DNA of 64,000 bases, taken from the IMG/VR virus record IMGVR_UViG_3300042568_000774, one strand, 5' to 3'. The notes beneath the pieces are model-generated. The model did no database searches, had not been told where the DNA came from, and worked only from the letters and a program-made list of their open reading frames with translations. Below are positions 23,470 through 62,374 of this stretch, one piece after another (the stretch's first letter is position 1; each line of letters starts with the position of its first letter). Source of the stretch: a virus. Its lineage: Duplodnaviria > Heunggongvirae > Uroviricota > Caudoviricetes. The position numbers and the translations under genes are program-made.

Positions 23470-23880
23470 CTATTTATAAATTGTTTTTACCGGAAAATGA
23501 AAATTATCTTCAAACCATCTTTTGAAAGGTTCTTCCCATCGGTCTCCAAAAATACCATCTAATTGCCTTGATAAATGAGAATCTTCAAATTCAACTATTG
23601 GTGATTCTTTTATACTCTTATTTAATATTCTACGGTCGTATTCGTGTCCATCTCTAGGTAAATTTGATTCTTCATCATACCAATAATTTTTATTGTACCA
23701 TCTAAATAAAGTGTTCTCACCATAATCGTAATCACCTTCATAGAACTCGGCAGCGTAATCAACATCATTACCCATATCATCTGAACCATATGTCCAACCA
23801 ATATTTGCAACATCAAAAACGCTATCAAGATGTTTTACAACCAAATCATCAATTCTATTTTCTGATATAATAAATTTCAT
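23470..23880 (-). CDS. N-motif family protein, core type (MKFIISENRIDDLVVKHL ... KRWFEDNFHFPVKTIYK)
   Basis: Has both the conserved N-terminal MK.II(S/T)EN motif and the C-terminal WFE..F..VK.I motif. A TATATTTATATAT box sits directly upstream of the ATG. Confidence 0.6.
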   Translation of the reverse strand: MKFIISENRIDDLVVKHLDSVFDVANIGWTYGSDDMGNDVDYAAEFYEGDYDYGENTLFRWYNKNYWYDEESNLPRDGHEYDRRILNKSIKESPIVEFEDSHLSRQLDGIFGDRWEEPFKRWFEDNFHFPVKTIYK

Positions 23881-23976
23881 ATATATAAATATAATATTTT
23901 TCCATTATAAAATAAAAAATCACCAATGAAGGTGATTATTTTCCACTAAAACAGGTATATTATCAATTATTTTCCA

Positions 23977-24270
23977 TTAAGGATTATGTAAGATATATGT
24001 TTTATCCTTTGTCAAATACTTAAAAATACAATTATCTTCGGTCACAAAAGGATAAAACCCCGTGATATCATTAATAAAATTATCAATTATTACTTCCTTA
24101 CCACTTTTTAATACTAAAATTCTGTGAAACGTTAATTGATTGTATTCAGTATACTTCACATTTTTAACAATTATTTCGTAATTTTTCTTTTTAGTGATAC
24201 GAACAACAAATTTAACATCCGGATATAATACTTTGATTAACTTTCTTAAACCATTTAATTTATCCATCAC
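23977..24270 (-). CDS. hypothetical protein (97 aa)
   Basis: ORF. ATGA overlap with the upstream gene. Confidence 0.4.
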   Translation of the reverse strand: MMDKLNGLRKLIKVLYPDVKFVVRITKKKNYEIIVKNVKYTEYNQLTFHRILVLKSGKEVIIDNFINDITGFYPFVTEDNCIFKYLTKDKTYILHNP

Positions 24271-24956
24271 ACCTTAAAAGGATTTTTATGTTTTATTTTT
24301 TCCGATATAAATTTATTTTCACTCATCACACCACAATTAAGTATTGGTTTTACGTCAACTCCAATGGACCAAGAAACAAACATTTGAGATAATTGGTCTC
24401 TACCACTATTTTTGGATATTTCTTTCCACCACGATTCATTAAACATTGTTGATTTAAGATTGTTTTTACGAATCATAAATCCTGTCTCAAATAATCCGTA
24501 ATTTCTTGGGAATGCCATTGAATGGTATTTGTTCATTTGTTTATTAACTATTTCAGGATAATCCAATTTTAATATTAAAACCACTTGTCCCTCGTCATAT
24601 ATACAATCTCTTTCAGGATGAGGAAAACACATTACTGACGAATTTCCAAAATTAATTTCCTTTAACAATTCATTAACTTCAGTAAATTTTGGTTCTAAAC
24701 AATGGTCAATCCAAATACTAATATCGTGTGGTGGTAACACCAAATGAGGATTCATTTTAATATATCGGGCTTTCTTACGATTATCTAAATTATCATTTAA
24801 AAAATCAACCAATTTAACTTCCCAAACATCGGATTTAAAATCATTGTCATCAGTAAATAAAATATAACGAACATTAGGGTCATAGTTAGTCAGAGGTATG
24901 AAATTATCATACCCCCCAATATTTGCACTATAAACTATAACTTTGATGTCAGACAT
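24267..24956 (-). CDS. hypothetical protein, possibly glycosyltransferase-like (start MSDIKVIVYSANIGGYDNF)
   Basis: The first 16 aa in the ORF track (MKTPLIGGF...) are the terminator hairpin at 24975-25003 translated. The real ATG is at 24956, preceded by a CCTATATTTATGTTT box. Function is a guess. Confidence 0.45.
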   Translation of the reverse strand: MSDIKVIVYSANIGGYDNFIPLTNYDPNVRYILFTDDNDFKSDVWEVKLVDFLNDNLDNRKKARYIKMNPHLVLPPHDISIWIDHCLEPKFTEVNELLKEINFGNSSVMCFPHPERDCIYDEGQVVLILKLDYPEIVNKQMNKYHSMAFPRNYGLFETGFMIRKNNLKSTMFNESWWKEISKNSGRDQLSQMFVSWSIGVDVKPILNCGVMSENKFISEKIKHKNPFKV

Positions 24957-24974
24957 AAACATAAATATAGGAAA

Positions 24975-25003
24975 TAAAAAACCCCCAATCAAGGGGGTCT
25001 TCA
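24975..25003. terminator. bidirectional terminator (AAAAAACCCCCAATCAAGGGGGTCTTC)
   Basis: C5/G5 stem. Confidence 0.7.
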
Positions 25004-25385: not shown

Positions 25386-25970
25386 TTAAAATTCGTAAGA
25401 ACTTGACACATAACGTCCACCTAAATTTATTTTAAACAATCCTTCAGGAAAATTGAAAGTGTCTAAAGTTTCTCTTAAGTTATTTCCTAATATTTTTAAA
25501 TTTTCTTCTCTTTGGTTACACTCATACCAAGAACACATAGTTGGCTTACAATTTTGTTTAAGACCAAATACAATATCATATTGAGTATCATTCAAATCTC
25601 TAACTACTTTTACTGATGCAATACATTCAGAACCTTCAGTATTTTTAAAAGATTTTTTCACTTCTTTATTAAAAACACTATCAATCCATTGTTTTTCACC
25701 CTCAACCAAAATTTTACCTCCGTAATTCATTATATTAACACCAAATAAATTATTAACCAATGATACTAAATCATCGTTAAACTCTTTTAATTTATTACCA
25801 GTATCAATTTTATCTAAACGACCTGATATCAAATCGTCCATTTGGATGTAGTAATCTAATCTATAGGAATATCCGGTATTTCTAACTTTAACAATAACAC
25901 CTTCAGGTGAATTTTTAAGTGAATACCTTTCTATTAATTTTATTATGTTTTCCTCTATATTATTTTCCAT
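25386..25970 (-). CDS. hypothetical protein (194 aa)
   Basis: ORF. The N-terminus MENNIEENIIKLIERY loosely resembles the family N-motif. Confidence 0.45.
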   Translation of the reverse strand: MENNIEENIIKLIERYSLKNSPEGVIVKVRNTGYSYRLDYYIQMDDLISGRLDKIDTGNKLKEFNDDLVSLVNNLFGVNIMNYGGKILVEGEKQWIDSVFNKEVKKSFKNTEGSECIASVKVVRDLNDTQYDIVFGLKQNCKPTMCSWYECNQREENLKILGNNLRETLDTFNFPEGLFKINLGGRYVSSSYEF

Positions 25971-26398
25971 TAATGTTTCTGAATTGTCTTAACTTCAAAT
26001 CCATATGTTTTTTCAAACCAATCTTTGAGTAAATCATCAAAATATTGATTAAACATTGTTTCTATATTTGGGAATGAATAATGCTCTCCGTATCGTAGTA
26101 TTGGTAAATTATCTTTATCACCCACATCACCTTCGTCAATTTGATATTGCATAACCCAATCATCATCTTCAAAGTCGTTTTCTATATCGTGATAAAAATT
26201 TAAAACATCAAAATCAACATACCCTCCTTTTTCTTGAACCCAATAATCATACGATTTTTCGGTGTGGTCCAAATTAGAATACGGTTCCATCAACTTTTCA
26301 AAGACGGAATATAATTTATCGTATTTAATTTTTACATCCATGTTACCAAGTTCTACAAGCCCAATATCTCGCTTTCCAACGTGGTCCTGGATTATCAC
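25970..26398 (-). CDS. N-motif family-related acidic protein (C-terminal ...DLLKDWFEKTYGFEVKTIQKH)
   Basis: Shares the family C-terminal WFE..YG.EVK.I motif. The N-terminal start is uncertain. Confidence 0.45.
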   Translation of the reverse strand: MIIQDHVGKRDIGLVELGNMDVKIKYDKLYSVFEKLMEPYSNLDHTEKSYDYWVQEKGGYVDFDVLNFYHDIENDFEDDDWVMQYQIDEGDVGDKDNLPILRYGEHYSFPNIETMFNQYFDDLLKDWFEKTYGFEVKTIQKH

Positions 26399-26714
26399 AA
26401 TTGTGACGGGCTCTAAAAGATTTTCTTCTTTCCGGATTATTTTTTTTAATGGTCATTCTTTTTCCTTTCGCAGATTTACCACCAAAGCCAAAGTTTACCT
26501 TAACAACATTTCCTTTATCGTTCTTAACATACACTTTGAATTTTTTAACATCACCTTGCATGATTTTTCCAAGTTTAACTTTTCTTCCTTGGTATTCGGC
26601 TTCAGTTAATAAGTCACCAACAACAAAGTTGGTTTCCTCAACTGAACCATAAAAACTATCATCCAAATTGTTGAATAGTTTATTGTACTGAGATTCTGTA
26701 ATTATTATTTTCAT
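26343..26714 (-). CDS. N-motif family protein (MKIIITESQYNKLFNNL...) with a basic C-terminus
   Basis: The N-terminal nucleotide sequence ATGAAAATAATAATTACAGAATCTCAGTA is identical to that of 26717..27394. The C-terminus is Lys/Arg/Cys/Trp-rich. Confidence 0.6.
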   Translation of the reverse strand: MKIIITESQYNKLFNNLDDSFYGSVEETNFVVGDLLTEAEYQGRKVKLGKIMQGDVKKFKVYVKNDKGNVVKVNFGFGGKSAKGKRMTIKKNNPERRKSFRARHNCDNPGPRWKARYWACRTW

Positions 26715-26716
26715 AT

Positions 26717-27394
26717 TTATTTTAAGTTTTTTGAAATTTTTATTGCTGTATTAATACTATTAACGTCACTTAAAATATCGTCTAATAGTTCAAGTAAAGA
26801 TTTTAAAGCTCGTTTTATATCGGAATTATTTATTTTTAACATTAAATCCCTAACATATTTAACAACTTTAGTTAAAGATTCAATCATTTCATATCCAAAT
26901 ATTTTAGCTAATACTAATATTATATTATACTTCCATTTGGTTTTTGATAAAAGAAGCACGGTTTGCTTATAAATCCCTAATTTTTTCCCAATTAATAATA
27001 TTTCTTCCGGAGTTTTACGTAAAACCGATTTGACACCTTGTCTAGCCATAATAGGTAACGCATTACCCGCAACCGGTAATGCTGCTGCACCTAAAGTAAC
27101 AACACCTAATGTCGCCATTTCAAGTTTTTCATCATCATTTTTTGCGTAAAAAAATCTAACCCCATAGGACAATGCGTGAGACACATCAATTCCTGCCGAT
27201 ATTAAATTACCGATTCCCGGCACTCCGTCTATTATTCCTGAAATAACGTCAACAACATCGTCAAAAGACAAATTATCTAATGATACAGATTTATTATTTT
27301 TTCTCATTAATTCTTTATTATATTGAGTATCTGATTTTTCATCAGGTTGCTCAAATAATTGACGATACTGAGATTCTGTAATTATTATTTTCAT
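26717..27394 (-). CDS. N-motif family protein (MKIIITESQYRQLFEQ..., 225 aa) with hydrophobic or TM-like central segments
   Basis: Conserved N-motif. ATGA overlap with the upstream gene. GIIDGVPGIGNLISAGIDV and LGVVTLGAAALPVAG are hydrophobic. Confidence 0.6.
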   Translation of the reverse strand: MKIIITESQYRQLFEQPDEKSDTQYNKELMRKNNKSVSLDNLSFDDVVDVISGIIDGVPGIGNLISAGIDVSHALSYGVRFFYAKNDDEKLEMATLGVVTLGAAALPVAGNALPIMARQGVKSVLRKTPEEILLIGKKLGIYKQTVLLLSKTKWKYNIILVLAKIFGYEMIESLTKVVKYVRDLMLKINNSDIKRALKSLLELLDDILSDVNSINTAIKISKNLK

Positions 27395-28209
27395 TTCTTT
27401 TTGTAACTTGTCATTGTTGGTTTATTTCCTGTCCCTATCTTTGGGTCTTTCTTTTCTGCTCTTCTTTTTTGTTGAGTCATTTTCTTTTTATCTTCCTTAT
27501 CGTATGATGATGCAATTTTTGGAGTTTCCTTTGAAACTTTTTTTGATGGTCTACATTTTGGATAAGCTTTCCCATCAGCATCCTTTCGTCCACAAGGTGG
27601 ATGTTTCCCTTTAACTTTTTTACTAACATCTACCCATTTCTCTTTAAACCATCTCCCTAAATCTTCATTCATTTCTTCATCAGAACAACGTTCCAAATAG
27701 TAGTTGTAAATTTCATCTTCAAAATGAGTTTCTAATGTTTCTAAAAAATCACTTTTATCCATTCCTTGAAAATCATCAACATCGTCAAAATATGTTCTGG
27801 CCTCCGAGATTACTCCACTCATAAAAGAATATTCGTCATCGTAATCACACGGATACATGGTTTCCATCAAATTATCCAAAAATATTTGAACACCTTTTAA
27901 TCTTCTTTTAATTGAAGCATTCATTTCCAATATTTTATACTGACTTTCAGTTATAATTATTTTCATATTAGTTTTGTTATTTTGTTTTTGACTCCTCAAT
28001 TGGTTTTCTATAATATCGTGTTTACGTTTTAATTTAACTCTCATTATTCCAATAACAATTTCAAATTTTTTAAATTCTTCCGACCTTGGGGTAATAGAAT
28101 ATTTTTTATTAAATTCATTAATTTCTTTAATAGTGTCGGATAATTGCTCACGACTTTCGCAAGAAATTAATTTCTTAATAAGAGATGAATATTCTAATCT
28201 TTTGTTCAT
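27391..28209 (-). CDS. N-motif family protein with the motif internal (…NNKTN-MKIIITESQYKILEMN…)
   Basis: The likely ATG is at 28209 (MNKRLEYSS), one nucleotide after the upstream stop. The MKIIITESQY motif lies about 80 aa in, using different codons from the neighbouring copies. An alternative internal start is at 27966. Confidence 0.5.
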   Translation of the reverse strand: MNKRLEYSSLIKKLISCESREQLSDTIKEINEFNKKYSITPRSEEFKKFEIVIGIMRVKLKRKHDIIENQLRSQKQNNKTNMKIIITESQYKILEMNASIKRRLKGVQIFLDNLMETMYPCDYDDEYSFMSGVISEARTYFDDVDDFQGMDKSDFLETLETHFEDEIYNYYLERCSDEEMNEDLGRWFKEKWVDVSKKVKGKHPPCGRKDADGKAYPKCRPSKKVSKETPKIASSYDKEDKKKMTQQKRRAEKKDPKIGTGNKPTMTSYKKK

Positions 28210-28210
28210 T

Positions 28211-28531
28211 TTAAAATTTTCTAAATAACTTAACCGGGTCAATCCCATAAGTTTTTTTTAACCACTTCTTAACTAATTGTTTTGCATCCCACTCATCACC
28301 GGTAAATATTTCAACATCTCTAACCATTTCCCAAGGAATTACTGCTCCTTGATTATCTTTAGTATAATGAAACACAATATCTTTTCCTGTTAAATTATGG
28401 TCAGCGTCTCTTACAAAATAAACAAGGTCCGGATGATTTTTACTCTCACCTCTTTTTAGACCACCATATTCTTTTGATAAATACTTGTCAATAAGTTCTT
28501 CTCGTTTTGATTCTGTTATTATAAACTTCAT
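28211..28531 (-). CDS. N-motif family protein, core type (MKFIITESKREELIDKYL ... KKWLKKTYGIDPVKLF)
   Basis: Has both N- and C-terminal family motifs. ATG at 28531. Confidence 0.6.
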   Translation of the reverse strand: MKFIITESKREELIDKYLSKEYGGLKRGESKNHPDLVYFVRDADHNLTGKDIVFHYTKDNQGAVIPWEMVRDVEIFTGDEWDAKQLVKKWLKKTYGIDPVKLFRKF

Positions 28532-28578: not shown

Positions 28579-29586
28579 ATGGAGAAAATAATCAACTTAT
28601 TAATTAACAATTGGACAAAAGGTGTGGATACTTACACCCACAATGGGTCTACTTGGTTAATATTTAGTGAATCCAAACAATGGGTGATTGAATTAACCGA
28701 AAGCAAAACCTTATGGTATAATTACAACTTCTTCAAAGAATTATTTAGTTTAACCTCAATGGATGTTGTGGATAATCAACATTACATAACCAAATGGGTG
28801 GAAGATAATTTAATAAATAAGGTTAAAGACACCATTTTGGAAAGAAACATTACAGAAGGTGAAGTTGATGACATCATCCAAGATGGAGTAAAAGAAACGT
28901 CCAGCAATGTAATGTTATTCCAATCAATGAAGGTTGAAGACACCATTCAAAATGGGGTGAAGGAAACTATTACCTCTGAAAAACGTAGTAGATTGACCGC
29001 AGAAAATATTATTGAGAATGGTGTGAGACACACAGAGATTGGTTGGCACCAATGCAACAATATTGATGATGCAATTGAAAAGGGTGTGAAGGAAACTATG
29101 TTTAATCAAGGACATAAACAACTCACAGTTAAAAATATAATTGAAAATGGGGTGAAGGAAACTAATAAATCATTACGAATAGATGGTTCTTTAGTTATTG
29201 AAGACACCATTCAAAATGGGGTGAAGTTGACACAATTTAATGATAACGAAAATAAAAGTTGGGTTGAGGGTGTTATTAAAAATGGTGTGAAAGAAACAAA
29301 AACACCCGGTAAAGATGGAGATATTCTGTCAACCATTGAATGGATGAAAGAAAATAAATCCAATAGTTATACCAAAATGATTGATGATGTTATTGATAAT
29401 GGTGTTAAGGAAACAAAAGTATGTCATTACACCGACCCTAAAACCAATCTTGTTCACGTTAGGTGGCCAGATGAGATTGATGATGTTATTGAGAATGGTA
29501 TAAAGGGAACCTTTGACACTGAGTTTATGCCAAAGGCAATCGTTGAAGACATTATACAAAATGGAACAAAAAACCCCTCCGTTTAA
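28579..29586 (+). CDS. repeat protein with about 10 copies of a roughly 22-25 aa repeat, D.I(Q/E)NGVKET (335 aa)
   Basis: The unit (V/I)EDTIQNGVKETxxxxxxxL recurs through the C-terminal 250 aa. The N-terminal about 70 aa are homologous to those of 42702..43430. Confidence 0.6.
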   Translation: MEKIINLLINNWTKGVDTYTHNGSTWLIFSESKQWVIELTESKTLWYNYNFFKELFSLTSMDVVDNQHYITKWVEDNLINKVKDTILERNITEGEVDDIIQDGVKETSSNVMLFQSMKVEDTIQNGVKETITSEKRSRLTAENIIENGVRHTEIGWHQCNNIDDAIEKGVKETMFNQGHKQLTVKNIIENGVKETNKSLRIDGSLVIEDTIQNGVKLTQFNDNENKSWVEGVIKNGVKETKTPGKDGDILSTIEWMKENKSNSYTKMIDDVIDNGVKETKVCHYTDPKTNLVHVRWPDEIDDVIENGIKGTFDTEFMPKAIVEDIIQNGTKNPSV

Positions 29587-29600: not shown

Positions 29601-30065
29601 TTATATTTCTTCTCCAAAAATATCATCAGTCCAATTCTGTGGAACAATGATAATGATATATCCTTGTTTAACTTCCAATAACGATTCCGGTATAATGTTT
29701 GAAAGGTCTTCAATAAGTTCCGGTGATTCTTTAAATACGATTCTTAATTTACCATCAGGTGCGGTATCCACAACCTTATGTCTATTAGATTCCATAATTT
29801 CTTTAAATGTGTCAAGACCTGTTTTTTCAAACTCTTCTTCTTCCTCATCTTCAATATCCGCATCACCACCCAAAAATCTATCAGGGATGTTGCTTTGACC
29901 ACCACTTTTTAAGTATTCAACTTCATCATCAGTCATACCTTCAATACCAACTTCATTATATAAGTCTAATATAATATCATAGTAATCATAATCAAATTGT
30001 TCATTGATAACTCTCTTAATTATTTGTCTTAAATCTGACTCCGTTAATTTTATAATCTTTTTCAT
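29601..30065 (-). CDS. N-motif family protein, LTE variant (MKKIIKLTESDLRQIIKRVINEQ), acidic
   Basis: Conserved N-motif, D/E-rich body (run of EEEEE). Confidence 0.55.
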   Translation of the reverse strand: MKKIIKLTESDLRQIIKRVINEQFDYDYYDIILDLYNEVGIEGMTDDEVEYLKSGGQSNIPDRFLGGDADIEDEEEEEFEKTGLDTFKEIMESNRHKVVDTAPDGKLRIVFKESPELIEDLSNIIPESLLEVKQGYIIIIVPQNWTDDIFGEEI

Positions 30066-30085: not shown

Positions 30086-30397
30086 TTATTTCTTTTTTTT
30101 ACTTTTACATTTTGAACAGTCCGACTTGGCATTAGGAAACCATTTATTAAGTTTAGTATTGGCTTTTTCATTTTTATATAACGAAATCCAATCAGGTATT
30201 TTTTTACCTGTTTGTGTTTTTGTTTCATCACTTTTAGTTTCCCAAAGGCATTCAGCACCAATTCTATATTTGTATGGGTCACCAGGAAATGGGCTTTTGT
30301 ATTCTTTCCAACAAGAAGTATCAACTGAATCTTCTTTTAAAATTTTTTTAATTAAATTTGTTAACTCACGTTCGGTTAATCTTAATGTCTTTCTCAT
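30086..30397 (-). CDS. N-motif family protein, LTE variant (MRKTLRLTERELTNLIKKILKED), Cys- and Lys-rich
   Basis: Conserved N-motif. An ATATTTATTGAT box lies upstream of the ATG. Confidence 0.55.
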   Translation of the reverse strand: MRKTLRLTERELTNLIKKILKEDSVDTSCWKEYKSPFPGDPYKYRIGAECLWETKSDETKTQTGKKIPDWISLYKNEKANTKLNKWFPNAKSDCSKCKSKKKK

Positions 30398-30412
30398 ATC
30401 AATAAATATACG

Positions 30413-30992: not shown

Positions 30993-31027
30993 ACAAAAAA
31001 CCCACCGGTTATGGTGGGTTATTATTT
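30993..31027. terminator. hairpin terminator AAAAAACCCACCGGTTATGGTGGGTTATTATTT
   Basis: Same palindrome as at 30413. Flanks the lipoprotein gene on the other side. Confidence 0.75.
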
Positions 31028-31817
31028 AGTTATTAACTGTTGGAGAAGAAGAAGGTGGTGGACCTACTTTTTTTCGTTCTAAAATTTCCATACAAGTTAG
31101 AGTACAACATCCTATTTTACCATCAATGTCTTTTGATGTACAAACTCCGGTAGTACCATCAGAATATTGTTTAAACCAAAGTTTTTTATTTCGTGAACAG
31201 AATTGTTGGAGTTGTTTTATTCGGTTAGGACTCACATCCGCAAATGAATTAGGTTTTAGTAGTTTAGCTTTACAAAACTTTTTTGGTTTAGGTGTTGGAG
31301 TAGGTTTTGTTTGGTTATTACCAGTACCTCCGGTAATTTTTACCGGTGAATTTTGTTTTTTACATTCAACACCATTTGCGGTAATTTTAATTTGAGTATT
31401 TAAAATAAAACGATTATTATAATCATAATTAGTTATCTCATAACATTTACCTGCTTTAGAATCTGATTGAATTTTAAACAAAAATGAACCCGGCTCTTTA
31501 AATTTCTCACCATTGAAGATGATAACAATTTTTCCTTTACCAAAAGGGTCATTTCTCAATTGATTTAATAATCCTGTTGAAATTTTTTCATCAGATGGGT
31601 TACTCAAAAACTTTTCAATTCCCGGACTTTGTTCCCCTTTGTCATATCTATGAGTATTTTGGTCATCAGATTGTTCGCTAACCAATGGTTTTGCATCCCC
31701 AAGTGTGGCTTTAATTAATTTTGAGAAATTTTCGTTTACAACTTTCATTCCCCCTTTGTGCTGTTCAAGAATTGCTTGTTTTTCCTGTTCAGTCAAATTA
31801 TTTAATATATGTTTCAT
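31026..31817 (-). CDS. hypothetical Cys-containing protein (263 aa)
   Basis: ORF. A Pro/Thr/Lys-rich linker (TKPTPTPKPKK) separates two Cys-containing halves. Confidence 0.5.
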   Translation of the reverse strand: MKHILNNLTEQEKQAILEQHKGGMKVVNENFSKLIKATLGDAKPLVSEQSDDQNTHRYDKGEQSPGIEKFLSNPSDEKISTGLLNQLRNDPFGKGKIVIIFNGEKFKEPGSFLFKIQSDSKAGKCYEITNYDYNNRFILNTQIKITANGVECKKQNSPVKITGGTGNNQTKPTPTPKPKKFCKAKLLKPNSFADVSPNRIKQLQQFCSRNKKLWFKQYSDGTTGVCTSKDIDGKIGCCTLTCMEILERKKVGPPPSSSPTVNN

Positions 31818-31915: not shown

Positions 31916-32254
31916 TTATTCGATTTCAGACAAAAAATCCATAATATCCGATGTTATATCCAATTGTCTATAATCAGATTGACTGCTCTCATCATCGTTA
32001 TTAGCATAATTAATCATTTCGGCAACAGATGAAAGTAATTCTGCGGTCTTTTCTCTCCCAATAATTGAAACTGATGTCATAACAAATTTTCCTAATTGTG
32101 AGGACATTTTATCAAAATACCCAAAATTTTTTCCACGATTATCCTCATAATTGAAGTATTCTTTTAATTTTTTAGGATTTGATTTTCCTTCTATTATCAC
32201 TTTTTTAACCAAACGATTTAAGTCGTTTTCAGTTAATCTTACAACTTTTTTCAT
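31916..32254 (-). CDS. N-motif family protein, LTE variant (MKKVVRLTENDLNRLVKKVIIEG)
   Basis: Conserved N-motif. A TATATTTATATATAAA box lies about 20 nt upstream of the ATG. Confidence 0.55.
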   Translation of the reverse strand: MKKVVRLTENDLNRLVKKVIIEGKSNPKKLKEYFNYEDNRGKNFGYFDKMSSQLGKFVMTSVSIIGREKTAELLSSVAEMINYANNDDESSQSDYRQLDITSDIMDFLSEIE

Positions 32255-32320: not shown

Positions 32321-32638
32321 TTAGGCACATTGTTTATCGTAAATTTCTTGGAGGTAGTCGGCAAAATTATCTACCATAAAATAATATAAATCGTCTTTAG
32401 TTTTAGAATCAATCTTTCCACCATTTTCATAATAGTAATCGTCAATCAAATCCAATACTAACATATCACACATCTCACCAATAAAATCTCCTAATGTACT
32501 ATAATCACAAGGATTATAATTCTCCATAATAAAATCTAAATGACCTTTAAGCTCATCGTAGTTAAATCTTCTACGAAGTGCCGCTGGAATATTCTCCATC
32601 AACATTTTATTCTGTCTTTCTGTGATTATTATTCTCAT
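32321..32638 (-). CDS. N-motif family protein (MRIIITERQNKMLMENI...), acidic/aromatic
   Basis: Conserved N-motif. Stop/start TAATATG junction with the upstream gene. Confidence 0.55.
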   Translation of the reverse strand: MRIIITERQNKMLMENIPAALRRRFNYDELKGHLDFIMENYNPCDYSTLGDFIGEMCDMLVLDLIDDYYYENGGKIDSKTKDDLYYFMVDNFADYLQEIYDKQCA

Positions 32639-32639
32639 A

Positions 32640-33686
32640 TTAATCTACATTAATTATTTTAGTAGGAAATTCTGTAAATACGGCGGTATTAAAATTATGG
32701 GTATAATTGTTATTATCAAATATTAAAATTTTATTAGGGTTAACAAATAAAATTTTATCAACCAATGATTTGTTCTTATAATCTCTCATACCATAAGTTT
32801 TAATAAAATAAGGACCTTCTTTTTTACCAGCATATGAAATTAATGGTTTTATTTGATAGTTGATACCATCAATTGTTACGTCAACACCTTCATATCTATC
32901 CATTTTAGAACCAGAAGGATAAAAAGTAACATCATCACCATTAAGTAATTCTTTAGCCAATTCCTCACTTTTATAACCATTTTCAATTGATTGCCATTGA
33001 CGTTCAACCAAAGGTTCAATAAAGTCAGAATTTTCTCTAAATTCATTAGCCAACCAATTAACAATATCCAAATCACTATCTGATTTAGAATATCTTTGGT
33101 TTATCATGTTTTGGATTTCTGTTTTTGTGTCAAAATAATTTAGGATAGACCAATCATCATCATTACCCAATTTTTCACCAATGGTATAAATACCTCTGAC
33201 ACCAGCAGAAAATATTTTATCTTCGTTATTCCATTTACCCGGACCATTATTATCCGGTGAAAATGCCAATTCCAAAGCCTTACGGATTTGGTAAGGTTTT
33301 ATTTCCTGTTTAATGTTGGTTTTAGATGAGTCAATTAATCCATGAAAAAGGTCAAGTTGTTTAGAAGTTAATTTATTACTAAAAATAAAAGGGGAATTAG
33401 TTTTACTTACGTGAACATCATTCCTATCAAATTCAAAGATACCGTTAGGCCCATCAAACCATACCTTATCACTTTGATTTGGTTTTTTATATTCGGTTTG
33501 TCCAAATTGGGTACCATTAAAAAATACTCTGAAATTTTCAGTACTAAATTTATCATTAGGGATAACCTCAATTGATTTATAATCATAAGTTGGATTCTCT
33601 TCCGAATAATCGAAAGAACGGGTAACTTCATTAATTAACTTATTATGATATAAATTAATTTGATATTCGGTAACTTTAATTTTCAT
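32640..33686 (-). CDS. N-motif family protein, long (MKIKVTEYQINLYHNKLINE..., about 348 aa)
   Basis: ATG at 33686. The preceding 16 codons in the ORF track are upstream sequence. An ATATTTATT box lies upstream. Confidence 0.5.
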   Translation of the reverse strand: MKIKVTEYQINLYHNKLINEVTRSFDYSEENPTYDYKSIEVIPNDKFSTENFRVFFNGTQFGQTEYKKPNQSDKVWFDGPNGIFEFDRNDVHVSKTNSPFIFSNKLTSKQLDLFHGLIDSSKTNIKQEIKPYQIRKALELAFSPDNNGPGKWNNEDKIFSAGVRGIYTIGEKLGNDDDWSILNYFDTKTEIQNMINQRYSKSDSDLDIVNWLANEFRENSDFIEPLVERQWQSIENGYKSEELAKELLNGDDVTFYPSGSKMDRYEGVDVTIDGINYQIKPLISYAGKKEGPYFIKTYGMRDYKNKSLVDKILFVNPNKILIFDNNNYTHNFNTAVFTEFPTKIINVD

Positions 33687-34478: not shown

Positions 34479-34766
34479 TTATCTGTTTGGTATAAAACAA
34501 AATGGTCTACCATCTTTGTGTACGGTATAACCTTGATATTCCGGTGACACTGTCCCATTATATGTAATTTTATCAATAGGTCCACGTAACATTGAACCCC
34601 CACCTGTAAGCGGGTTACGTGGTCCATCACCTGGACGCGGATAATCACCACCTTCAGATTTCATAACACTGCTACATATTGGTAGTCCCATCGATTCTTC
34701 TTCTTTAATCACTCTTCGAACAACTTTTGCCAAATCGGATTCAGATAATCTTAAAACTCTTTTCAT
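34479..34766 (-). CDS. N-motif family protein, LTE variant (MKRVLRLSESDLAKVVRRVIKEE), Gly/Pro-rich body
   Basis: Conserved N-motif. An ATATATTTATATATAAAT box lies about 30 nt upstream. Confidence 0.55.
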   Translation of the reverse strand: MKRVLRLSESDLAKVVRRVIKEEESMGLPICSSVMKSEGGDYPRPGDGPRNPLTGGGSMLRGPIDKITYNGTVSPEYQGYTVHKDGRPFCFIPNR

Positions 34767-34809: not shown

Positions 34810-35238
34810 TTAACCAATATTGTTTGCGGTTGTCCCATATTTTTGATTAAAAATATTTAAAAATGATTTACCCCAAACATCCATGCCACCAAACATATCA
34901 ACAAGTTCGTCAATAAGTTCTTCTCCCAACCATAGGGTATCAAATCGAGATTCGGTGATATCCGGCAAATCATAACAAGGTTCAGGTAATTCGCCCATAA
35001 GCTCTTCAGGGTAATCCCCATTATCATTATAGTTCTCACCATCAACCAACTTAAATAAATAATCATCGTGTTCTCTATCGGGAAGAACAAAACCAATCGC
35101 ATAAATGTCGCAACATACTCCCCACCCACAATTAAAGTCAGCCCAATTATAATCCATGTCATCAAACCCATCCAAAGTTTGATTCAGATATTTTAAAATA
35201 ACATTTGTTAATTTAGATTCGTCAATAATATATTCCAT
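34810..35238 (-). CDS. N-motif family protein (MEYIIDESKLTNVILKYLN...), strongly acidic (D/E/Y/W/C-rich)
   Basis: N-motif variant. Very acidic body, DNA-mimic-like composition. The 50-bp GC-rich repeat (copy 1) lies 13 nt upstream. Confidence 0.55.
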   Translation of the reverse strand: MEYIIDESKLTNVILKYLNQTLDGFDDMDYNWADFNCGWGVCCDIYAIGFVLPDREHDDYLFKLVDGENYNDNGDYPEELMGELPEPCYDLPDITESRFDTLWLGEELIDELVDMFGGMDVWGKSFLNIFNQKYGTTANNIG

Positions 35239-35250
35239 GATAATAAATAT

Positions 35251-35320
35251 CCCCCGACACCAAAAAAAGGGGCGGGGGATTTGAAATCGACCGGAGGGAG
35301 TTCGGGGTGGGATTAGTCCT
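35251..35320. repeat. GC-rich intergenic repeat, copy 1 (…CCAAAAAAAGGGGCGGGGGATTTGAAATCGACCGGAGGGAGTTCGG…)
   Basis: About 85% identical to copies at 36626-36680 and 37798-37850. Stands out sharply from the AT-rich background. Confidence 0.7.
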
Positions 35321-36605: not shown

Positions 36606-36625
36606 ATAAATAAATATACGACATT

Positions 36626-45788: not shown

Positions 45789-45855
45789 AATAATAAATAT
45801 AATGTTTGGCGGAATTGTTTTTATTTTATATCTTTGCACTACTAATAATGATAAA

Positions 45856-53893: not shown

Positions 53894-54730
53894 TTATTTT
53901 AATCCGTACAACACTTGTGTGTTAGTTCCTAATTGTGTAGTTGGTACTTGACCTTTCCATTTCTCAATCCATTGTTGTTGTAACAACATAGGTGTTAATG
54001 TTTGTTGTCTTAATCTGTTAGATTCCGCCTCAGCTCTTGCGTTTGCCAATAATGCCTCAGCGTTACCATTAGCCGTCGCCACCTTAATTTTTGCCTCAGC
54101 TTCAGCCTGTTTTACTTTGTTCTCAGCCATCAATGCCGATTGTACCGCGTTGTTCTTAGCGTTAATCGCTTTCTTGAATGAATCCGGATATACTAAATTA
54201 GATGTAAACTGATTGATTACGAACCCTTCTTTTAGTAATTGACCTTCTAACAATCGTCTAACTTCAACTTCAAACACTTCTCTATTCCCAATTAACCCAT
54301 CAGCAGTATACTTATTAGTGGCCAAACGGAATGCGTCATACACAGCTGTCTTTAAGAATCCTTCCTCAATTTCTTCTAAACTTCTTCTGTATTTAGCAAA
54401 TATTCCCGGAACTTTCTCTCTCTGTACTGAATAGTTCATAATTGGAGAAACGCTAAATTCCGAACCATCCTTACTATTCACCACAAATGAATTATCATCT
54501 TTGTATTCTTTGTGTTGGATAAACGTTGGAAACTCATAAATCTTTGTAGTAATAGGATTATAAAATACTACACCCGTACACTCGGTGACATCATTCACCC
54601 CTTTACCACTTCCGTACATATCAACTTTGACACCTACGTGACCCGCATCAATTCTCTCACAAGAATTTACCAAGAATAAACTTGCGAACACTAACCCTAA
54701 TAACACTAAAATAATTTTACCTCTACTCAT
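53894..54730 (-). CDS. SPFH/band-7 (prohibitin/HflK-like) domain protein
   Basis: N-terminal TM helix, an SPFH-like core (…YPDSFKKAINAKNNAVQSALMAENKVKQAEAEAKIKVATANGNAEALLANARAEAE…) and a C-terminal coiled-coil, typical of the family. Confidence 0.65.
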   Translation of the reverse strand: MSRGKIILVLLGLVFASLFLVNSCERIDAGHVGVKVDMYGSGKGVNDVTECTGVVFYNPITTKIYEFPTFIQHKEYKDDNSFVVNSKDGSEFSVSPIMNYSVQREKVPGIFAKYRRSLEEIEEGFLKTAVYDAFRLATNKYTADGLIGNREVFEVEVRRLLEGQLLKEGFVINQFTSNLVYPDSFKKAINAKNNAVQSALMAENKVKQAEAEAKIKVATANGNAEALLANARAEAESNRLRQQTLTPMLLQQQWIEKWKGQVPTTQLGTNTQVLYGLK

Positions 54731-57301: not shown

Positions 57302-58387
57302 CTATCCCTTATAATGTCTTTGGTATGATTTGAATCTTTGTCTACTTGATTCATCCTTATCAACCTCAAAAAAATATTTTTCAACATTAGGGTCATTAAT
57401 CAATTTAAGGTAATCACCATAAACTTGACTTCTATCAATAGATAATCGTTTCTTTACCAAACTTCTTTTAATACCTAATCCCTCAACATTTTTCTTATAC
57501 AACCAATAAGGTATTTTGATATAAACAAACCCTTCTTTACCTTCAACCGGTCCTAATATTTCTATTTGAGATTTTGGTAACTTTGAGAAATAAATGTAAA
57601 TATTATATGATTCAGCACCATCCATGAATAAACCTGAATTATCCAAAAACTCTTTGATATTCAAAACCTCAATCATATTAGGTAAATCTTTAGTAATCAT
57701 ATAAGCACCTATCATCGCCTTTTCTTCAGGAAGATAAACCAACTTATTAAAGTCAGGTGTAGTATCAACCGGTTCTTCTTGTTCATTTAATCTTGATTGT
57801 AATGGCGGATTTAACAAGAACTTTTCGTTAACCCATCTTCTTAATTCATTTTCAACAAAATATTCGGGAACTTCTTCATCATCCGGTTTTTCACTGGCAA
57901 TGTTTGCAATATGTTTCGCAAACTTAACTTTATATCTATCATCTAACATATTCATTAGTCCGTCAGAGATAAAAAAGATTTTAGATAAAGGGTCAGACAA
58001 ATTAATATCACCTTCAGCAATCTTAAACGATTTAAGAATTGCCTTACCCCAAAAGGTTTTATAGTTTTCTGTTTCAGTTAAACTTGGAGCTAATATTTTA
58101 TTTACCGCTCTTACAACTCCGGCAATCGCACCCGCAACAAATAGTTGAGGAATAAACCAAGGTAGTAATCTAATGGTAGCCTTTACACCACCTTCACCAA
58201 CGTGTTTAAATATTCTTCTTTTAGTTGCACTTTCAACTATGGCTTTTAATTGACCAAAAGTAATCTTACCTTGTGCCTTACAAAATTTCTCACTATCACA
58301 AATACTTTTGACAGTTGTTTTTGATGGCTCTACCTCCACGTCCTCTAATATTTTAGAATATTGAATTTCTTTAACTATAATTCTCAT
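57302..58387 (-). CDS. N-motif family protein, long (MRIIVKEIQYSKILEDVEVE..., 361 aa)
   Basis: N-motif variant. An ATATATTTATAAAT box lies upstream. Central hydrophobic segment LLPWFIPQLFVAGAIAGVV. Confidence 0.5.
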   Translation of the reverse strand: MRIIVKEIQYSKILEDVEVEPSKTTVKSICDSEKFCKAQGKITFGQLKAIVESATKRRIFKHVGEGGVKATIRLLPWFIPQLFVAGAIAGVVRAVNKILAPSLTETENYKTFWGKAILKSFKIAEGDINLSDPLSKIFFISDGLMNMLDDRYKVKFAKHIANIASEKPDDEEVPEYFVENELRRWVNEKFLLNPPLQSRLNEQEEPVDTTPDFNKLVYLPEEKAMIGAYMITKDLPNMIEVLNIKEFLDNSGLFMDGAESYNIYIYFSKLPKSQIEILGPVEGKEGFVYIKIPYWLYKKNVEGLGIKRSLVKKRLSIDRSQVYGDYLKLINDPNVEKYFFEVDKDESSRQRFKSYQRHYKG

Positions 58388-58418
58388 ATTTATAAATATA
58401 TTTGCAATCTAAAATATT

Positions 58419-59237
58419 ATGGAAAAACACAAATTACTTTCGTTAGTTAGAAAAACCGGAAAATCATTTATCAATAAAAACCCTACAGGAGTATATCGAG
58501 ACATTCTTAACGATAACAATTTTGAATCGTTATCTTTTATACTAAAAGCAAAAGATTTAGTTATGTTTTCATTATTAGTTCCTCGTTTTAATATGGGTTC
58601 AGATATTGATGAGGACTATGATAGAATTGAAAATAATATGTTCACTATTGAATTAGTTGAAATATACAATTCAGAACCTGAAGTTGAATGTCCTGAATGT
58701 GGTGGTCATGGTAATGAAAATTGTGATAATTGTGATGGTACAGGTGAAGTAGAATGTGGTATTTGTGATGGCTCCGGTGAAGAGGATTGTAGATATTGTG
58801 GTGGTTCAGGTATGGATGAAGATGCTGGTGAAGAATGTGATATGTGTGAAGGTGATGGGAAACAAACTTGTGAACATTGTAATGGTCACACTTCCGAATC
58901 TTGTAATTATTGTGGTGGCGATGGTGAGACGGGTTGTTATACTTGTGATTCAACAGGTAAAGTTGAATCATCCGATTCTTCTGAAGTTATATATACTGAT
59001 TTTGTTTCTTGGAGTGGTCGTTGGAAAATGTATTTTGCCAATATAAAACACCACGAACAAATTGATACTGAAGATTCAAATAATTTTTATAACAACAACC
59101 AAACATTAATCATGAGAGAATATTATGAAATATCTGAAGAGTATGAAGGTTATGAAAATGGTGATACATTTTTATTTCATATGAATGAAAACCCTGAATT
59201 AATTAATAGAGATAGTAACGGAGTTGTTAGAATCTAA
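58419..59237 (+). CDS. zinc-finger protein with 8 tandem CxxCxGxG motifs (DnaJ cysteine-rich-domain-like)
   Basis: CPECGGHG, CDNCDGTG, CGICDGSG, CRYCGGSG, CDMCEGDG, CEHCNGH, CNYCGGDG, CYTCDSTG. Acidic flanks. Confidence 0.6.
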   Translation: MEKHKLLSLVRKTGKSFINKNPTGVYRDILNDNNFESLSFILKAKDLVMFSLLVPRFNMGSDIDEDYDRIENNMFTIELVEIYNSEPEVECPECGGHGNENCDNCDGTGEVECGICDGSGEEDCRYCGGSGMDEDAGEECDMCEGDGKQTCEHCNGHTSESCNYCGGDGETGCYTCDSTGKVESSDSSEVIYTDFVSWSGRWKMYFANIKHHEQIDTEDSNNFYNNNQTLIMREYYEISEEYEGYENGDTFLFHMNENPELINRDSNGVVRI

Positions 59238-59238
59238 A

Positions 59239-59727: not shown

Positions 59728-59767
59728 ATTCTTGTTATATATTTGATAAATATGTATATTTATTATT

Positions 59768-60439
59768 ATGGTATCAGAAAAACTAATAAAATTATATTAC
59801 AACAAACTTAAAAAACCAACCATTATACACGGATTGGTATTACACCCATTTATAATTGACGATAGAATAATTTGGGAAGTTGAAAATCCAAATGACGTGT
59901 CCTATTCGTCAACAGTGGTTGAAGGTCATCTTGAGGAAATGTTATACGAATTTCTTGAACTAGCGGGTGTTGTAAATCGTGAAAAAGTTTCAGGTGGTCT
60001 TGATTGGTCTGTAATAGGCCCAAAATATTGTAGATTAAGTAAACAAGATGTATACATTAGTAAAGAAACCCGTGATAAAATAAACAAATCGTTAGAGAAT
60101 TTTAATGAAATACAATTAAACGATTCAGGTTCAATATTAAACGCTGAATGTTTTGTAAAAAATTGGTCAATAGAATACCCTGATACCGAATCCTTATATT
60201 TTCATTTAGATTTAGAGTTATTTAATCCAAATATAGATAATGAAGATGTTGATGATGATACATTACAAGAATTTATTCAAAGTTTTATATATGACACTGA
60301 TTCCTCTGAACAAGAACAAGACATTATTTCAGAACAAATGAGCATTCTATATAATGAAAAAAATCTCATTGATACCGAGTATATGTTTATAATGCCAATA
60401 ATTGGTTACTATGATTCATTTGGGAATGGATTAACTTAA
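59768..60439 (+). CDS. acidic hypothetical protein (223 aa)
   Basis: GTATATTTATTATT box upstream. D/E-rich C-terminal half. Confidence 0.5.
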   Translation: MVSEKLIKLYYNKLKKPTIIHGLVLHPFIIDDRIIWEVENPNDVSYSSTVVEGHLEEMLYEFLELAGVVNREKVSGGLDWSVIGPKYCRLSKQDVYISKETRDKINKSLENFNEIQLNDSGSILNAECFVKNWSIEYPDTESLYFHLDLELFNPNIDNEDVDDDTLQEFIQSFIYDTDSSEQEQDIISEQMSILYNEKNLIDTEYMFIMPIIGYYDSFGNGLT

Positions 60440-60801
60440 ACAAAAGTTAAATCAGAACAGACCATAGGTAAAAATTGGTCAATATTATCTAATATTTTAT
60501 CTTCAACATCATCTTTAACCCAACTTGGTAAATCCCATATGTTAAATTTACCTTCCCAATCACCTTCAAACCCAATCATAACATCTGCTTTAAGATAAAC
60601 AGATGCTCCATACTTACATTGATTGTATTTTTTACTTTCCCATAAACTTACACGGATTACTTTGAACGTCACTTTCCAATCAGCATAATCATCTTCAGCT
60701 GTTGAATAAGGCATACTGTATTGACCTTGCATTTTGTTGTCTTTATCAACAATTTTACGGATTAACTCACCTAACTTATTTATTTTATCTTCAGTATCCA
60801 T
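60436..60801 (-). CDS. hypothetical protein (121 aa)
   Basis: ORF. Confidence 0.45.
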   Translation of the reverse strand: MDTEDKINKLGELIRKIVDKDNKMQGQYSMPYSTAEDDYADWKVTFKVIRVSLWESKKYNQCKYGASVYLKADVMIGFEGDWEGKFNIWDLPSWVKDDVEDKILDNIDQFLPMVCSDLTFV

Positions 60802-61841
60802 TATATATAATCAGGGAAAAACTCATTGATATATTTATCCACTAAACGACTATCAGGATAATCCGGTATTCTAAAATCAAGATAAGATTCATCACCATTT
60901 TCCATAAAAGTATTCATCATATTTAACCAAGTACTAACATTATTAAGATTATATACATAATACCCCCAATTATTTTTTTCAGCAACATATTTGTGAATAG
61001 AATTAACAACCTCACCCGGATTAAATTTAATTTTGTAAAATTCTATTAATTTTTGAGAACCTTCAAATGGAGGTGAAGCTTCCCATTTAGCACTTTTCAT
61101 ATCAAAGAATGTTTCTAACTCACTAGTAACATAATTGTATACTTCCGTCTCATACGCACTATTATAAGCATTTGAGTGAATACCATATAAGTCACCCGAT
61201 AAATCGCCTAAATAATCATTATCAATTAAATACATAAACGATTCCTCATCACCAATCACATCACCAACATTTTCAGGTGTTAGATAAAAAATACCTTCAT
61301 CATCAGCGTAATTATGAAATAAATCAGGTGTCTCATCATCAACCTCAATTTTCCAATTGGTTAATACGTCCAACATATATTTTTTTAATAGTTCTATGTT
61401 TGCAGGATTTAGTTCTTCAACAACATCTCTATAGATATCATCGGTTGTGTTACCCCATCTATCAAATATATCATCATCTTCACCTAACACCGCTTTGGCA
61501 ACATCTCTAGCTGTAGTATCACGACCACCATCATAAAATAAATCCGCTAAATCCTCTCTATCTTGGACTCTCATGTAATAACCATCACCTGTAGGTATTA
61601 CATCAGATAGTTGAGCAACACAATACTCTAATGTTTTTTTATCATTTACAACATTCAATAAGTAATTTAATATCTCTATCTGATAATCTTCCACGTCAGT
61701 ATCAAATGGGTCAATAAATTGTAATAAATCTTTTTTATGAAAAAATTTTAGTATGTTTTCCACACTTTCAAACATGTCAATAAGGTAATCCATATCACCA
61801 GTGTTAAAGTCGTTTACGTATTTTAAATATTTTTCGTTCAT
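60801..61841 (-). CDS. strongly acidic hypothetical protein (346 aa)
   Basis: D/E/Y-rich. ATGA overlaps on both sides. Confidence 0.5.
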   Translation of the reverse strand: MNEKYLKYVNDFNTGDMDYLIDMFESVENILKFFHKKDLLQFIDPFDTDVEDYQIEILNYLLNVVNDKKTLEYCVAQLSDVIPTGDGYYMRVQDREDLADLFYDGGRDTTARDVAKAVLGEDDDIFDRWGNTTDDIYRDVVEELNPANIELLKKYMLDVLTNWKIEVDDETPDLFHNYADDEGIFYLTPENVGDVIGDEESFMYLIDNDYLGDLSGDLYGIHSNAYNSAYETEVYNYVTSELETFFDMKSAKWEASPPFEGSQKLIEFYKIKFNPGEVVNSIHKYVAEKNNWGYYVYNLNNVSTWLNMMNTFMENGDESYLDFRIPDYPDSRLVDKYINEFFPDYI

Positions 61842-62374
61842 TATATATTAAGATTAAAAATTCTACTGCTATATTTAGGTCTATCAAATATGATTTGTAT
61901 TCCTGTCTGTGATGTTATGTTATCCTTGAAATAATCATTAATACCCCAATTAACCTCATCATCAACTTCCCATCCGTAGTCATCATTATCCAAAGCGTCT
62001 TCTAATGTTTTATGGTCACCGTCTATATCAAGATGACCACCTAAATCATCAACCTTTACTTTAACAACAACATTTGGTTCATCCTCATTTAATCCCCAAT
62101 TTTTAATATCTGTAACCTCAAAGAAAAAATCATATGTACCAAAGTTATCTACATGGTGTGGATTCTGAAGTAATAAACTTTTGGCGAGTTCTTTGGATTC
62201 TTTTTCACCTCTCCATTCAATAAGGTACTTGTAGGCTTGGTTATAGGTAAAGTAATTATTAACATCATCTAATCCAAACATAGAAATAAAATTATCATCA
62301 ACTTTACCACCCATTTTGTCCCAGTATTTGAATAATATGTTTTTGTATTTAGATTCTGTTAATATAAGTTTCAT
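61841..62374 (-). CDS. N-motif family protein (MKLILTESKYKNILFKYWDKMG..., 177 aa), acidic
   Basis: Conserved N-motif. Confidence 0.55.
   Translation of the reverse strand: MKLILTESKYKNILFKYWDKMGGKVDDNFISMFGLDDVNNYFTYNQAYKYLIEWRGEKESKELAKSLLLQNPHHVDNFGTYDFFFEVTDIKNWGLNEDEPNVVVKVKVDDLGGHLDIDGDHKTLEDALDNDDYGWEVDDEVNWGINDYFKDNITSQTGIQIIFDRPKYSSRIFNLNI

Follow-up and report, generated by a model that had tools for sequence, protein, structure and literature searches.

What does a phage gain by starting some 30 small genes, many of them encoding otherwise unrelated proteins, with the same few N-terminal peptides? This question is raised by a stretch of 64,000 nucleotides (here the window; G+C ~31%) from a tailed phage of the class Caudoviricetes (IMG/VR record IMGVR_UViG_3300042568_000774), in which arrays of small genes, almost all on the minus strand, extend from 23.4 to 62.4 kb. 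The shared N-termini, which we refer to as heads, had been noticed in the sequence and read as a capsid-targeting or propeptide handle that loads diversified cargo into the virion; we refer to that reading as the original prediction. We report here that these proteins do share an N-terminal handle on diversified cargo, and that this handle is strongly selected and virus-specific. As to its function, it is quite possible, and the explanation that we favour, that the heads are protease-removable tags of the kind of the capsid-targeting sequences (CTSs) of phage T4.

About 30 genes in the window begin with one of a few heads

Searches of the six-frame translation of 23.4-62.4 kb with regular expressions (M-K/R-x-I-I/V-T/S-E for A heads and K..RLTE[SNR][DE]L for B heads) recovered N-termini with 19 A, 4 B and 5 C/D heads; all matches lie on the Met that opens an open reading frame (ORF) and none is in a wrong frame. 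Hidden Markov models (HMMs) of the heads that were trained on other loci only identified 20 A, 4 B and 5 C/D heads in the window, compared with 0, 0 and 1 match in the reversed-sequence control. The additional A head is located at ~212 on the minus strand, beyond the range covered by the original prediction. The total is ~30 heads (20 A, 4 B, 4 C and 2 D), to which two looser 'E-type' heads starting at 16934 and 31026 can be added. The proposed set of ~30 genes with related N-termini is confirmed, and it is larger than had been claimed.

Three classes of heads had been distinguished. The motifs of all three are present, but A heads (MKxIITES...) and B heads (a 22-residue unit, MKK(I/V)IRLTESDLxR(I/L)VKRVIxE) turned out to share a single pattern, h-T-E-S-x-L-x-x-h-h-x-x-h-h, in a shifted register, while the C heads (MNLxENIxRIxxMM) and D heads (MKDLIRKILREE) form a separate, heptad-like helix. 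Similarly, of two copies thought to carry the motif internally or after an extension, the one at 27966 is truly internal, and the 94 residues that precede it have a homologue in a related locus (L035), whereas the 16-residue extension at 33734 probably reflects an upstream in-frame ATG. The heads are absent from Pfam and PHROG descriptions, and a literature search on the motif strings returned nothing relevant.

Heads are maintained by selection on the peptide and are exchanged between bodies

We compared the heads across 845 kb of sequence comprising the window and 46 related loci (43 from IMG/VR, on contigs of up to 322 kb). Among the 441 heads in this set, 433 (98%) begin at Met, and the 433 head-bearing proteins, with a median length of 130 residues, fall into 196 orthologue-level clusters. 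As originally observed, the same peptide is spelled with different codons in neighbouring genes (ACAGAATCTCAG at 26714/27394 vs ACTGAAAGTCAG at 27966). In 192 distinct A heads from the related loci, codon use at the conserved residues matches genome usage; for instance, Ser8 is encoded by TCA, AGT and TCT at frequencies of.37,.32 and.20, compared with.35,.27 and.22 in the genome. The heads are A/T-rich and have a slight surplus of A-ending codons. Between unrelated bodies, the amino acid identity of the heads amounts to 61-64%, and the fraction of identical residues that are also encoded by the same codon is.55-.62 vs.48-.52 expected from codon usage. Because the codons of conserved residues follow genome usage and synonymous choice is near random, selection acts on the peptide. 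We conclude that the heads are kept by long-term purifying selection on amino acids and not by DNA copying or by an RNA signal.

The heads behave as modules with a sharp boundary. They are 15-22 residues long and are followed by an unconserved linker; in B heads, the information content falls from >3 bits to <1 bit directly after V-I-x-E, the final E of which is 97% conserved. A hydrophobic-x-E motif is present at the head boundary in 100% of B heads, 99% of C heads and 48% of non-core A heads (those outside the core family described below) against a background of 29%; E22 is present in 55 of 69 B heads, and residues 5-7 of every A head additionally read I-T/S-E. The same body can carry different heads: the TPGRYVVHSS domain, A-headed in the window (47344-47955), is C/D-headed in L010 and L016, and the RRR/PCDY, GGxxxL and DUF5872 bodies are each found with A, B, C or D heads. 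A KOW-like domain is headed if it is N-terminal and headless if it is internal. For the B-head protein encoded at 34479-34766 (minus strand; HMM), AlphaFold 2 (AF2) predicted an extended, non-helical conformation for residues 1-8 and a helix for residues 9-25. A ribbon-helix-helix (RHH) domain was considered for the head and rejected, because no RHH family was detected in Pfam scans (E up to 0.1) and a linker, not a second helix, follows the head.

Beyond these loci, a profile search with 44-residue N-termini, in which only short proteins were listed and which is therefore hardly informative on cargo, returned at least 801 clusters of B-head proteins. A DNA pattern for the B head matched IMG/VR contigs of 5-412 kb in at least 120 stretches and had 4 matches in 596 Gb of cellular genomes, 4/4 on contigs of metagenome-assembled genomes. 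Judged from these sequence matches, the B head is abundant and virus-specific. A gut-type variant of the B head reads ...LTESDLHKIVKESVNKIL.

Heads concentrate next to a gp21-type protease gene in relatives

In L102, a locus with B heads, a protein of the Pfam family Peptidase_S77, to which the T4 prohead protease gp21 belongs (1.9e-27), is followed by three consecutive headed small genes and then by an acidic scaffold-like protein; the large ORFs upstream are putative terminase and portal genes, assigned by size and position alone. Using tblastn, we also detected the gp21-family protease in the head-bearing loci L080, L098, L120 and L141. We fetched 80 IMG/VR loci centred on a gp21-family protease gene and identified 71 heads in them. 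Thirty-four of the 71 are located ≤500 bp downstream of the protease gene and on the same strand, and head density is 0.32/kb in the 2.5 kb downstream of the protease vs 0.02/kb elsewhere, a 16-fold difference. Enough downstream sequence was available for 63 loci; one or more heads are present in this region in 28 of them, and two or more in 16. The genes form a chain of gp21-like protease, head genes, a gene for a 77-residue protein, gp22-like scaffold and gp23-like capsid protein, and in L221 and L224 the same post-protease slot is occupied by A heads.

One family in the protease-scaffold slot allows the N-terminal peptides of orthologues to be compared. A 'GGYDD' orthologue with a D head begins with MNIRKIIKEELLKE, directly followed by VGGYDD; another has a B head, with ...LEKLVKKIITE preceding VGGYDD; and the orthologue in the cultured Flavobacterium phage immuto has a different peptide, with ...FLKESTIQE preceding QGGYVE. 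All three peptides end in hydrophobic-x-Glu directly before the conserved body. The gp21-family protease is present in immuto too: the gp21-like protease matches 2,136 T4-like phage records, of which immuto is the closest (40.8%).

The 'GGYDD...HAG' family comprises proteins of ~170 residues encoded in L172-L251, ~0.5-2 kb downstream of the protease gene (e.g. L189 8050-8559) and, in immuto, at 125241-125468 of NC_055915.1. In Bacteroidota-type T4-like phages, it is encoded after the prohead protease and before the scaffold, and its product is a candidate prohead core protein; tblastn with this family against the phage record collection returned no match. Separately, a single B-head gene is found between ribonucleotide reductase and gp25/gp6-like baseplate wedge genes in L081 (3376-3864), L113 and L166 (2197-2619). 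It follows a terminator, in L081 and L113 also stands behind a T4-late-type TATAAATA, and in the same two loci encodes a transmembrane (TM)-like segment. From this arrangement, it appears to lead the baseplate operon.

A core family with A heads represents a new domain

About 10 window proteins share not only the A-type N-terminus but also the C-terminal motif LFG..W..FK.WFE..G..VK.I. That such a subset consists of true homologues had been predicted and is confirmed, with ~10 members and thus more than claimed. On the minus strand, core members are encoded at 23470-23880 (regular expression and HMM; preceded by TATATTTAT-N4-ATG), 28211-28531, 47015-47344 and 47957-48262 (all three HMM), at 46635-47015, and, with a degenerate head (MDVKIKYDKL), at 25970-26338; two more lie on the plus strand at 42002-42271 and 42284-42652 (both HMM), the latter with a Cys-rich C-terminal tail. 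Core-like proteins with A heads detected by HMM are encoded on the minus strand at 34810-35238 (MEYIIDES; acidic, net charge -24) and 48262-48570.

A profile of the family collected 519 clusters at 50% identity among 1.84 billion representatives, with K2, I5, E7, F98, W102, W109 and F110 near-invariant. The core MKYIITES...WFE domain had no significant match in Pfam-A, PHROG or PDB, fold searches with the AF2 model returned nothing informative, and no relative was found in GTDB genomes. Searches of 50,697 phage records with the region, the core proteins and the head peptides (megablast, tblastn) gave no match, the short-peptide searches probably being insensitive. The domain is a new family, absent from Pfam and PHROGs and from the cultured phages of that record collection.

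In the AF2 model of the protein encoded at 46635-47015, residues 7-21 form a helix (pLDDT ~91), and residues 1-4 are predicted at <50. According to this model, T6-E7-S8 is the start of helix 1 in the core family, and the sequence suggests that I5 and L/Y10 form a hydrophobic staple around the T/S N-cap. Tandem or fused core members keep this helix start internally (RQFIISES, RFRIITESK, ENITESRRDK). The invariant Glu at position 7-8 had been likened to the sites cut by T4-type prohead proteases. I-T/S-E is indeed present, but Glu7 as a pure cleavage mark is not supported: in the core family it lies where helix 1 begins, and internal copies of the domain retain it.

The heads as candidate capsid-targeting tags

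Our working hypothesis is that the head is a self-contained N-terminal address peptide in which a hydrophobic stub (MK-h-I-I or MKKIIRL) and a capped helix start (T/S-E-S) would be followed by an amphipathic helix of 10-15 residues, usually ending in (I/L/V)-x-E before the unconserved linker. During head assembly, this peptide would attach its protein to the prohead core or scaffold in the manner of the CTSs of the T4 internal proteins, and a gp21-family prohead protease, cutting after Glu, would then remove it. In this way, a large and rapidly changing collection of accessory or effector proteins would enter the capsid and be delivered along with the phage DNA. On this point, the original prediction finds genuine but indirect support in T4-like relatives, in which the heads mark small genes between the protease and the scaffold and end in (I/L/V)-x-E; we infer both prohead targeting and cleavage at Glu.

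The closest precedent is T4 itself, in which an E-to-D change at the boundary prevents processing and leaves targeting intact. The T4 CTSs are N-terminal propeptides of 10-20 residues, and the prohead proteases of T4, phiKZ and SPN3US cut after Glu (PMC5694885, PMC9026906); the internal proteins of T-even phages are diverse and have only the CTS in common (PMC3012670). Like the CTSs of IPI, IPII, IPIII, Alt and gp24, which are removed by gp21, the heads are short N-terminal peptides on unrelated, fast-evolving proteins, both start with MK and end in hydrophobic-x-Glu (for the heads, this refers to the presence of the motif only), and T4-like relatives encode a gp21-family (Peptidase_S77) protease and the scaffold next to the heads. 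In contrast to the T4 sequences, the heads have no sequence similarity to MKTYQEFIAE, are longer (15-22 residues), have a defined capped helix and occur as several types per genome; moreover, ~30 tagged genes are present in 40 kb here compared with a handful in T4, and the heads are known from sequence alone. The propeptides of inner-body and ejection proteins in phiKZ, 201phi2-1 and SPN3US are also comparable in that they belong to paralogous head-internal families processed after Glu, and gp53 and gp54 of SPN3US are paralogues with identical N-termini (PMC5694885). The propeptides of these giant phages differ in being mostly >100 residues long, in having the motif A/S/G-x-E and in not belonging to small single-domain accessory proteins.

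Several observations weigh against the heads being capsid-targeting tags. The numbers of tagged genes, ~30 in 40 kb and 196 clusters in 845 kb, are far above any known packaged set, and a sigma factor and TM-like proteins would be odd capsid contents. Hydrophobic-x-E is a weak motif that occurs by chance ~3 times per 100 residues, and in the core family the A motif is partly structural, as T6-E7-S8 opens a well-predicted helix and is kept internally. Isolated B-head genes have replication, homing-endonuclease and structural genes as neighbours, which amounts to no simple positional rule, and the first 50 kb of immuto contain no A, B or C head. The window and L001-L046, which cover no head module, contain neither a gp21-type protease nor a capsid head gene, and the sole protease in the window is ClpP-fold; a search with the immuto protease as query yielded close relatives of immuto only. 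Finally, the window genes are arranged in short operons with many promoter-like sites and hairpin terminators, a layout that looks like an early or hyperplastic accessory region and not like a head module. Under our hypothesis, the genome of the window phage would also encode a gp21-type protease.

Alternative explanations for the heads

In one alternative, the head would instead be a docking or oligomerisation helix with a non-capsid target, such that tagged proteins pair with each other or bind one hub (for example a chaperone, RNA polymerase, the membrane or an infection compartment) and no cleavage takes place. The number and variety of the tagged proteins, which include a sigma factor, kinases and TM-containing proteins, suit a cytoplasmic hub better than a capsid, and the window genes do lie in accessory-gene arrays. 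For both core and B proteins, AF2 predicted an extended stub and then a confident helix; the exposed Ile-rich stub suggests beta-strand pairing, and the heptad-like hydrophobic spacing in the sequence logos fits helix packing. Nevertheless, we regard this explanation as unlikely: it accounts neither for the 16-fold concentration of heads after gp21-type protease genes nor for the hydrophobic-x-E ending of every head type, and no candidate for the hub was identified.

Less likely still is that the heads are a historical or structural relic, i.e. helix 1 of the WFE family, which would have spread by recombination or stop-codon loss in tandem arrays and serve as a folding aid with no shared targeting. 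Such an origin fits the ~10 window genes that are true paralogues of the 519-cluster family, the internal copies that keep the I-T/S-E-S helix start and the high confidence with which helix 7-21 is predicted, but not the B, C and D heads, which lie outside the WFE domain. The 5' ends of the neighbouring genes that start at 26714 and 27394 have 29 identical nucleotides in common, and fusions such as P0170 look like deletions between RIIK-stop and MKVIITES; the near-random synonymous sites imply, however, that recent DNA copying is not what maintains the heads. Moreover, heads occur on many unrelated folds with a linker in between, conservation ends abruptly after the head and the head is lost once the cargo domain becomes internal.

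The location of a ClpP-family gene next to the array (22254-22988, plus strand) raises the idea that the head is an N-terminal degron or stability switch for an unfoldase-protease, such as host ClpX or ClpA together with the phage ClpP, by which tagged proteins would be removed on schedule. A terminal peptide with a flexible linker suits engagement by an unfoldase, the heads are nearly always N-terminal, and the ClpX N-motif 2 consists of Met-basic followed by three hydrophobic residues. We nonetheless consider a degron improbable, because known degrons are short and non-helical whereas conservation in the heads covers 15-22 residues and a capped amphipathic helix, no ClpX or ClpA gene or adaptor was seen in the window, and the clustering beside gp21-type proteases would be unexplained; neither a degron nor an RHH-like function is directly supported.

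Least probable of all is that the head is an expression leader providing the optimal first 10-20 codons, or nascent peptide, for leaderless or Shine-Dalgarno-less Bacteroidota mRNAs. Many head genes do start 4 nt after TATATTTAT, an arrangement from which a leaderless mRNA would result, and heads are N-terminal only, A/T-rich and mildly enriched in A-ending codons. However, it is the residues that are conserved, with variation at the synonymous level (TCN and AGY codons both encode Ser8, at genome frequencies), and conservation shows helix periodicity and reaches as far as residue 22; headless genes have the same promoter-like site in front of them, and the housekeeping genes of the window (thymidylate synthase, ClpP, glycosyltransferases) are headless.

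Cargo and further head genes of the window

The cargo assignments made originally are borne out. A C head precedes a P-loop kinase (45039-45788, minus strand; HMM) with a Pfam SKI/AAA_18 match, and another C head precedes a ParB-like domain (44280-45038, minus strand) that matches phrog_17560 and phrog_723 and has homologues without a head in phage EL and other jumbo phages. TM-like segments are present at residues 91-116 of an A-head protein (26717-27394, minus strand; HMM) and at residues 74-100 of a protein with a weak A head (MRIIVKEIQY; 57302-58387, minus strand; HMM). The acidic bodies are acidic, with net charges of -14 to -24, and include, all on the minus strand and detected by HMM, a B-head protein with a net charge of -23 (29601-30065) and two A-head proteins (36285-36605 and, with the head MKLILTESKY, 61841-62374).

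The remaining A heads on the minus strand are found in a gene that runs off the left end of the window (3-212, MKIVITESQYKKLLKED; head-A HMM, 26.2 bits), in front of a basic body matching phrog_7595 (26343-26714, MKIIITESQYNKL; HMM), an RRR/PCDY domain (32321-32638; HMM) and a 330-residue body (32640-33686, MKIKVTEYQ; regular expression), and at 49621-49992 (MKIKISEDKL; HMM). In the gene at 27391-28248, a 94-residue N-terminal domain precedes the internal A head, which is followed by an RRR/PCDY domain and a DUF5872 C-terminus, and in the gene at 47344-47955 the A head is followed by the TPGRYVVHSS domain and a KOW-like domain. Further B heads are present in a protein with a basic body (30086-30397, MRKTLRLTERELTNLIKKILKE; HMM) and at 31916-32254 (HMM). 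C heads also open the genes at 41373-41846 (HMM) and 43491-43922 (HMM), the latter with a 'GGxxxL' domain that elsewhere has A or D heads. D-type heads are found at 43924-44280 (MKLQDTIKRILIEE; HMM) and, provided that translation starts at the second Met, at 48570-49169 (MKDLIRKILREEV); all these genes are likewise on the minus strand. The two looser E-type heads belong to a protein with an SLT-like transglycosylase body (16934-17659, plus strand, MSKKLIITEEEKNNIKSLYNVNEQ; head variants occur in related loci) and to the gene at 31026-31817 (minus strand, MKHILNNLTEQEKQAILEQH).

In the related loci, the cargo of long headed proteins includes PG_binding_1, LysM, phage lysozyme, Peptidase_M23 and VanY/M15 domains, as well as sigma-70 regions 2 and 4, kinases, ART-PolyVal and a dual-specificity phosphatase. 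By analogy, this cargo looks like early-phase effectors and overlaps with domains predicted to be injected; Iyer et al. (2017) assigned such domains to proteins that enter the host with the phage DNA (PMC5512222). Specifically, polyvalent proteins (PMC5512222) resemble the cargo in their ART-PolyVal, ParB-like, lysozyme, DD-peptidase, kinase, HExxH peptidase-like and transcription factor domains or motifs, and differ in that many domains are joined in one giant polypeptide, in contrast to the separate small tagged proteins observed here.

Genome context of the window phage

The thymidylate synthase encoded in the window (18216-19436, minus strand) is 60% identical to immuto ThyA, with the same unusual long insertions, and a C-type lectin protein is 58% identical to an immuto protein. 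Because both resemble immuto, the window phage is related to T4-like Flavobacterium phages, and we take its source to be an uncultured Flavobacterium-type giant phage. The thymidylate synthase is the best clue to its relatives and host. The lectin is part of an island (1261-9201, minus strand) of secreted, lipoprotein-like proteins and proteins with T9SS-type C-terminal domains; the 'host-interface island' of Flavobacterium jumbophages (PMC13573597) resembles it.

The product of 22254-22988 is, as predicted, a ClpP-family protease (Pfam CLP_protease, 1e-52; phrog_94 head maturation protease, 3e-31), and its best tblastn matches are in huge and Lak phages. It is not, though, a plausible processing enzyme for the heads, being ClpP-fold and not a Glu-specific gp21/Peptidase_S77 protease and being flanked by unrelated small genes. 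The PHROG name reflects the shared ClpP fold only, and this fold is not known to be Glu-specific. The window also encodes a Band_7/SPFH protein (53894-54730, minus strand). SPFH proteins pair with ClpP-class NfeD proteases in cells, and by analogy such pairing is another possible role for the ClpP-like gene.

The sequence TATATTTAT is located exactly 4 nt before an ATG 17 times in the window vs 3.4 expected, and 82 distinct cases occur in the 845 kb; sites in the window include 23878-23893, 30395-30410, 36603-36618, 41844-41859, 45786-45801, 49990-50005, 58385-58400 and others. There is usually a T at -1, and the site often directly follows a GC hairpin and T-run. With the geometry of a T4 late promoter or a Bacteroidota -7 box, transcription would start at the A of the ATG and yield a leaderless mRNA. 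The promoter-like sequence precedes both headed and headless genes, and we rejected it as an early/late marker because helicase and polymerase genes are preceded by it as well as tail tube and baseplate hub genes.

Additional features lie within or near the arrays. Two plus-strand genes inside the minus-strand arrays (28579-29586 and 42702-43430) encode proteins with similar N-termini (WT.G...W..F.E...W) and ~8-10 repeats of a ~25-residue unit with (I/V)(I/E)NG(V/I)(K/T)(E/S)T; the product of 28579-29586 had no Pfam or PHROG match. The gene at 58419-59237 (plus strand) encodes CxxCxGxG-type Cys-rich repeats resembling the zinc-finger region of DnaJ, with no PHROG match. Near-identical GC-rich elements, ..ACTCCCTCCGGTCG...CCCCCGCCCC-T-run, at 35240-35310 and 36607-36680 lie directly upstream of the minus-strand head genes that start at 35238 and 36605; in appearance they resemble repeated cassettes for termination or regulation, and one adjoins an HNH endonuclease gene (36729-37154, plus strand).

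Implications for Flavobacterium-type phages

More tentatively than for the heads themselves, we suggest as a possibility that in a Flavobacterium-type lineage of T4-like or jumbo phages interchangeable capsid-targeting peptides of types A, B and C/D load dozens of small effectors per genome and that a gp21-type protease clips the tags. Short terminal markers that address diverse cargo are familiar from the encapsulation peptides of bacterial microcompartments, the cargo-loading peptides of encapsulins and the N-terminal marker domains (MIX, FIX and RIX) of effectors of type VI secretion systems (T6SS). The logic is the same by analogy; sequences, machines and organisms differ, and we saw no microcompartment, encapsulin or T6SS genes.

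Should the capsid reading be wrong, the heads would still represent an undescribed, virus-specific and strongly selected module on about one-third of accessory genes. If it is right, the tagged set would extend to hundreds of families across the lineage, including ADP-ribosyltransferases, nucleases, kinases, cell-wall hydrolases and a sigma factor, and would make up an arsenal of tag-addressed effectors carried in the capsid, larger than any described from a phage. A 20-residue sequence would then mark the whole injected proteome of abundant aquatic and gut Bacteroidota phages, and hundreds of families that lack an annotation would become candidates for effectors of host takeover or anti-defence. 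It would also make the diversification of internal proteins by phages directly testable, and the tag would be a portable means of packaging foreign proteins in phages of bacteria other than E. coli.

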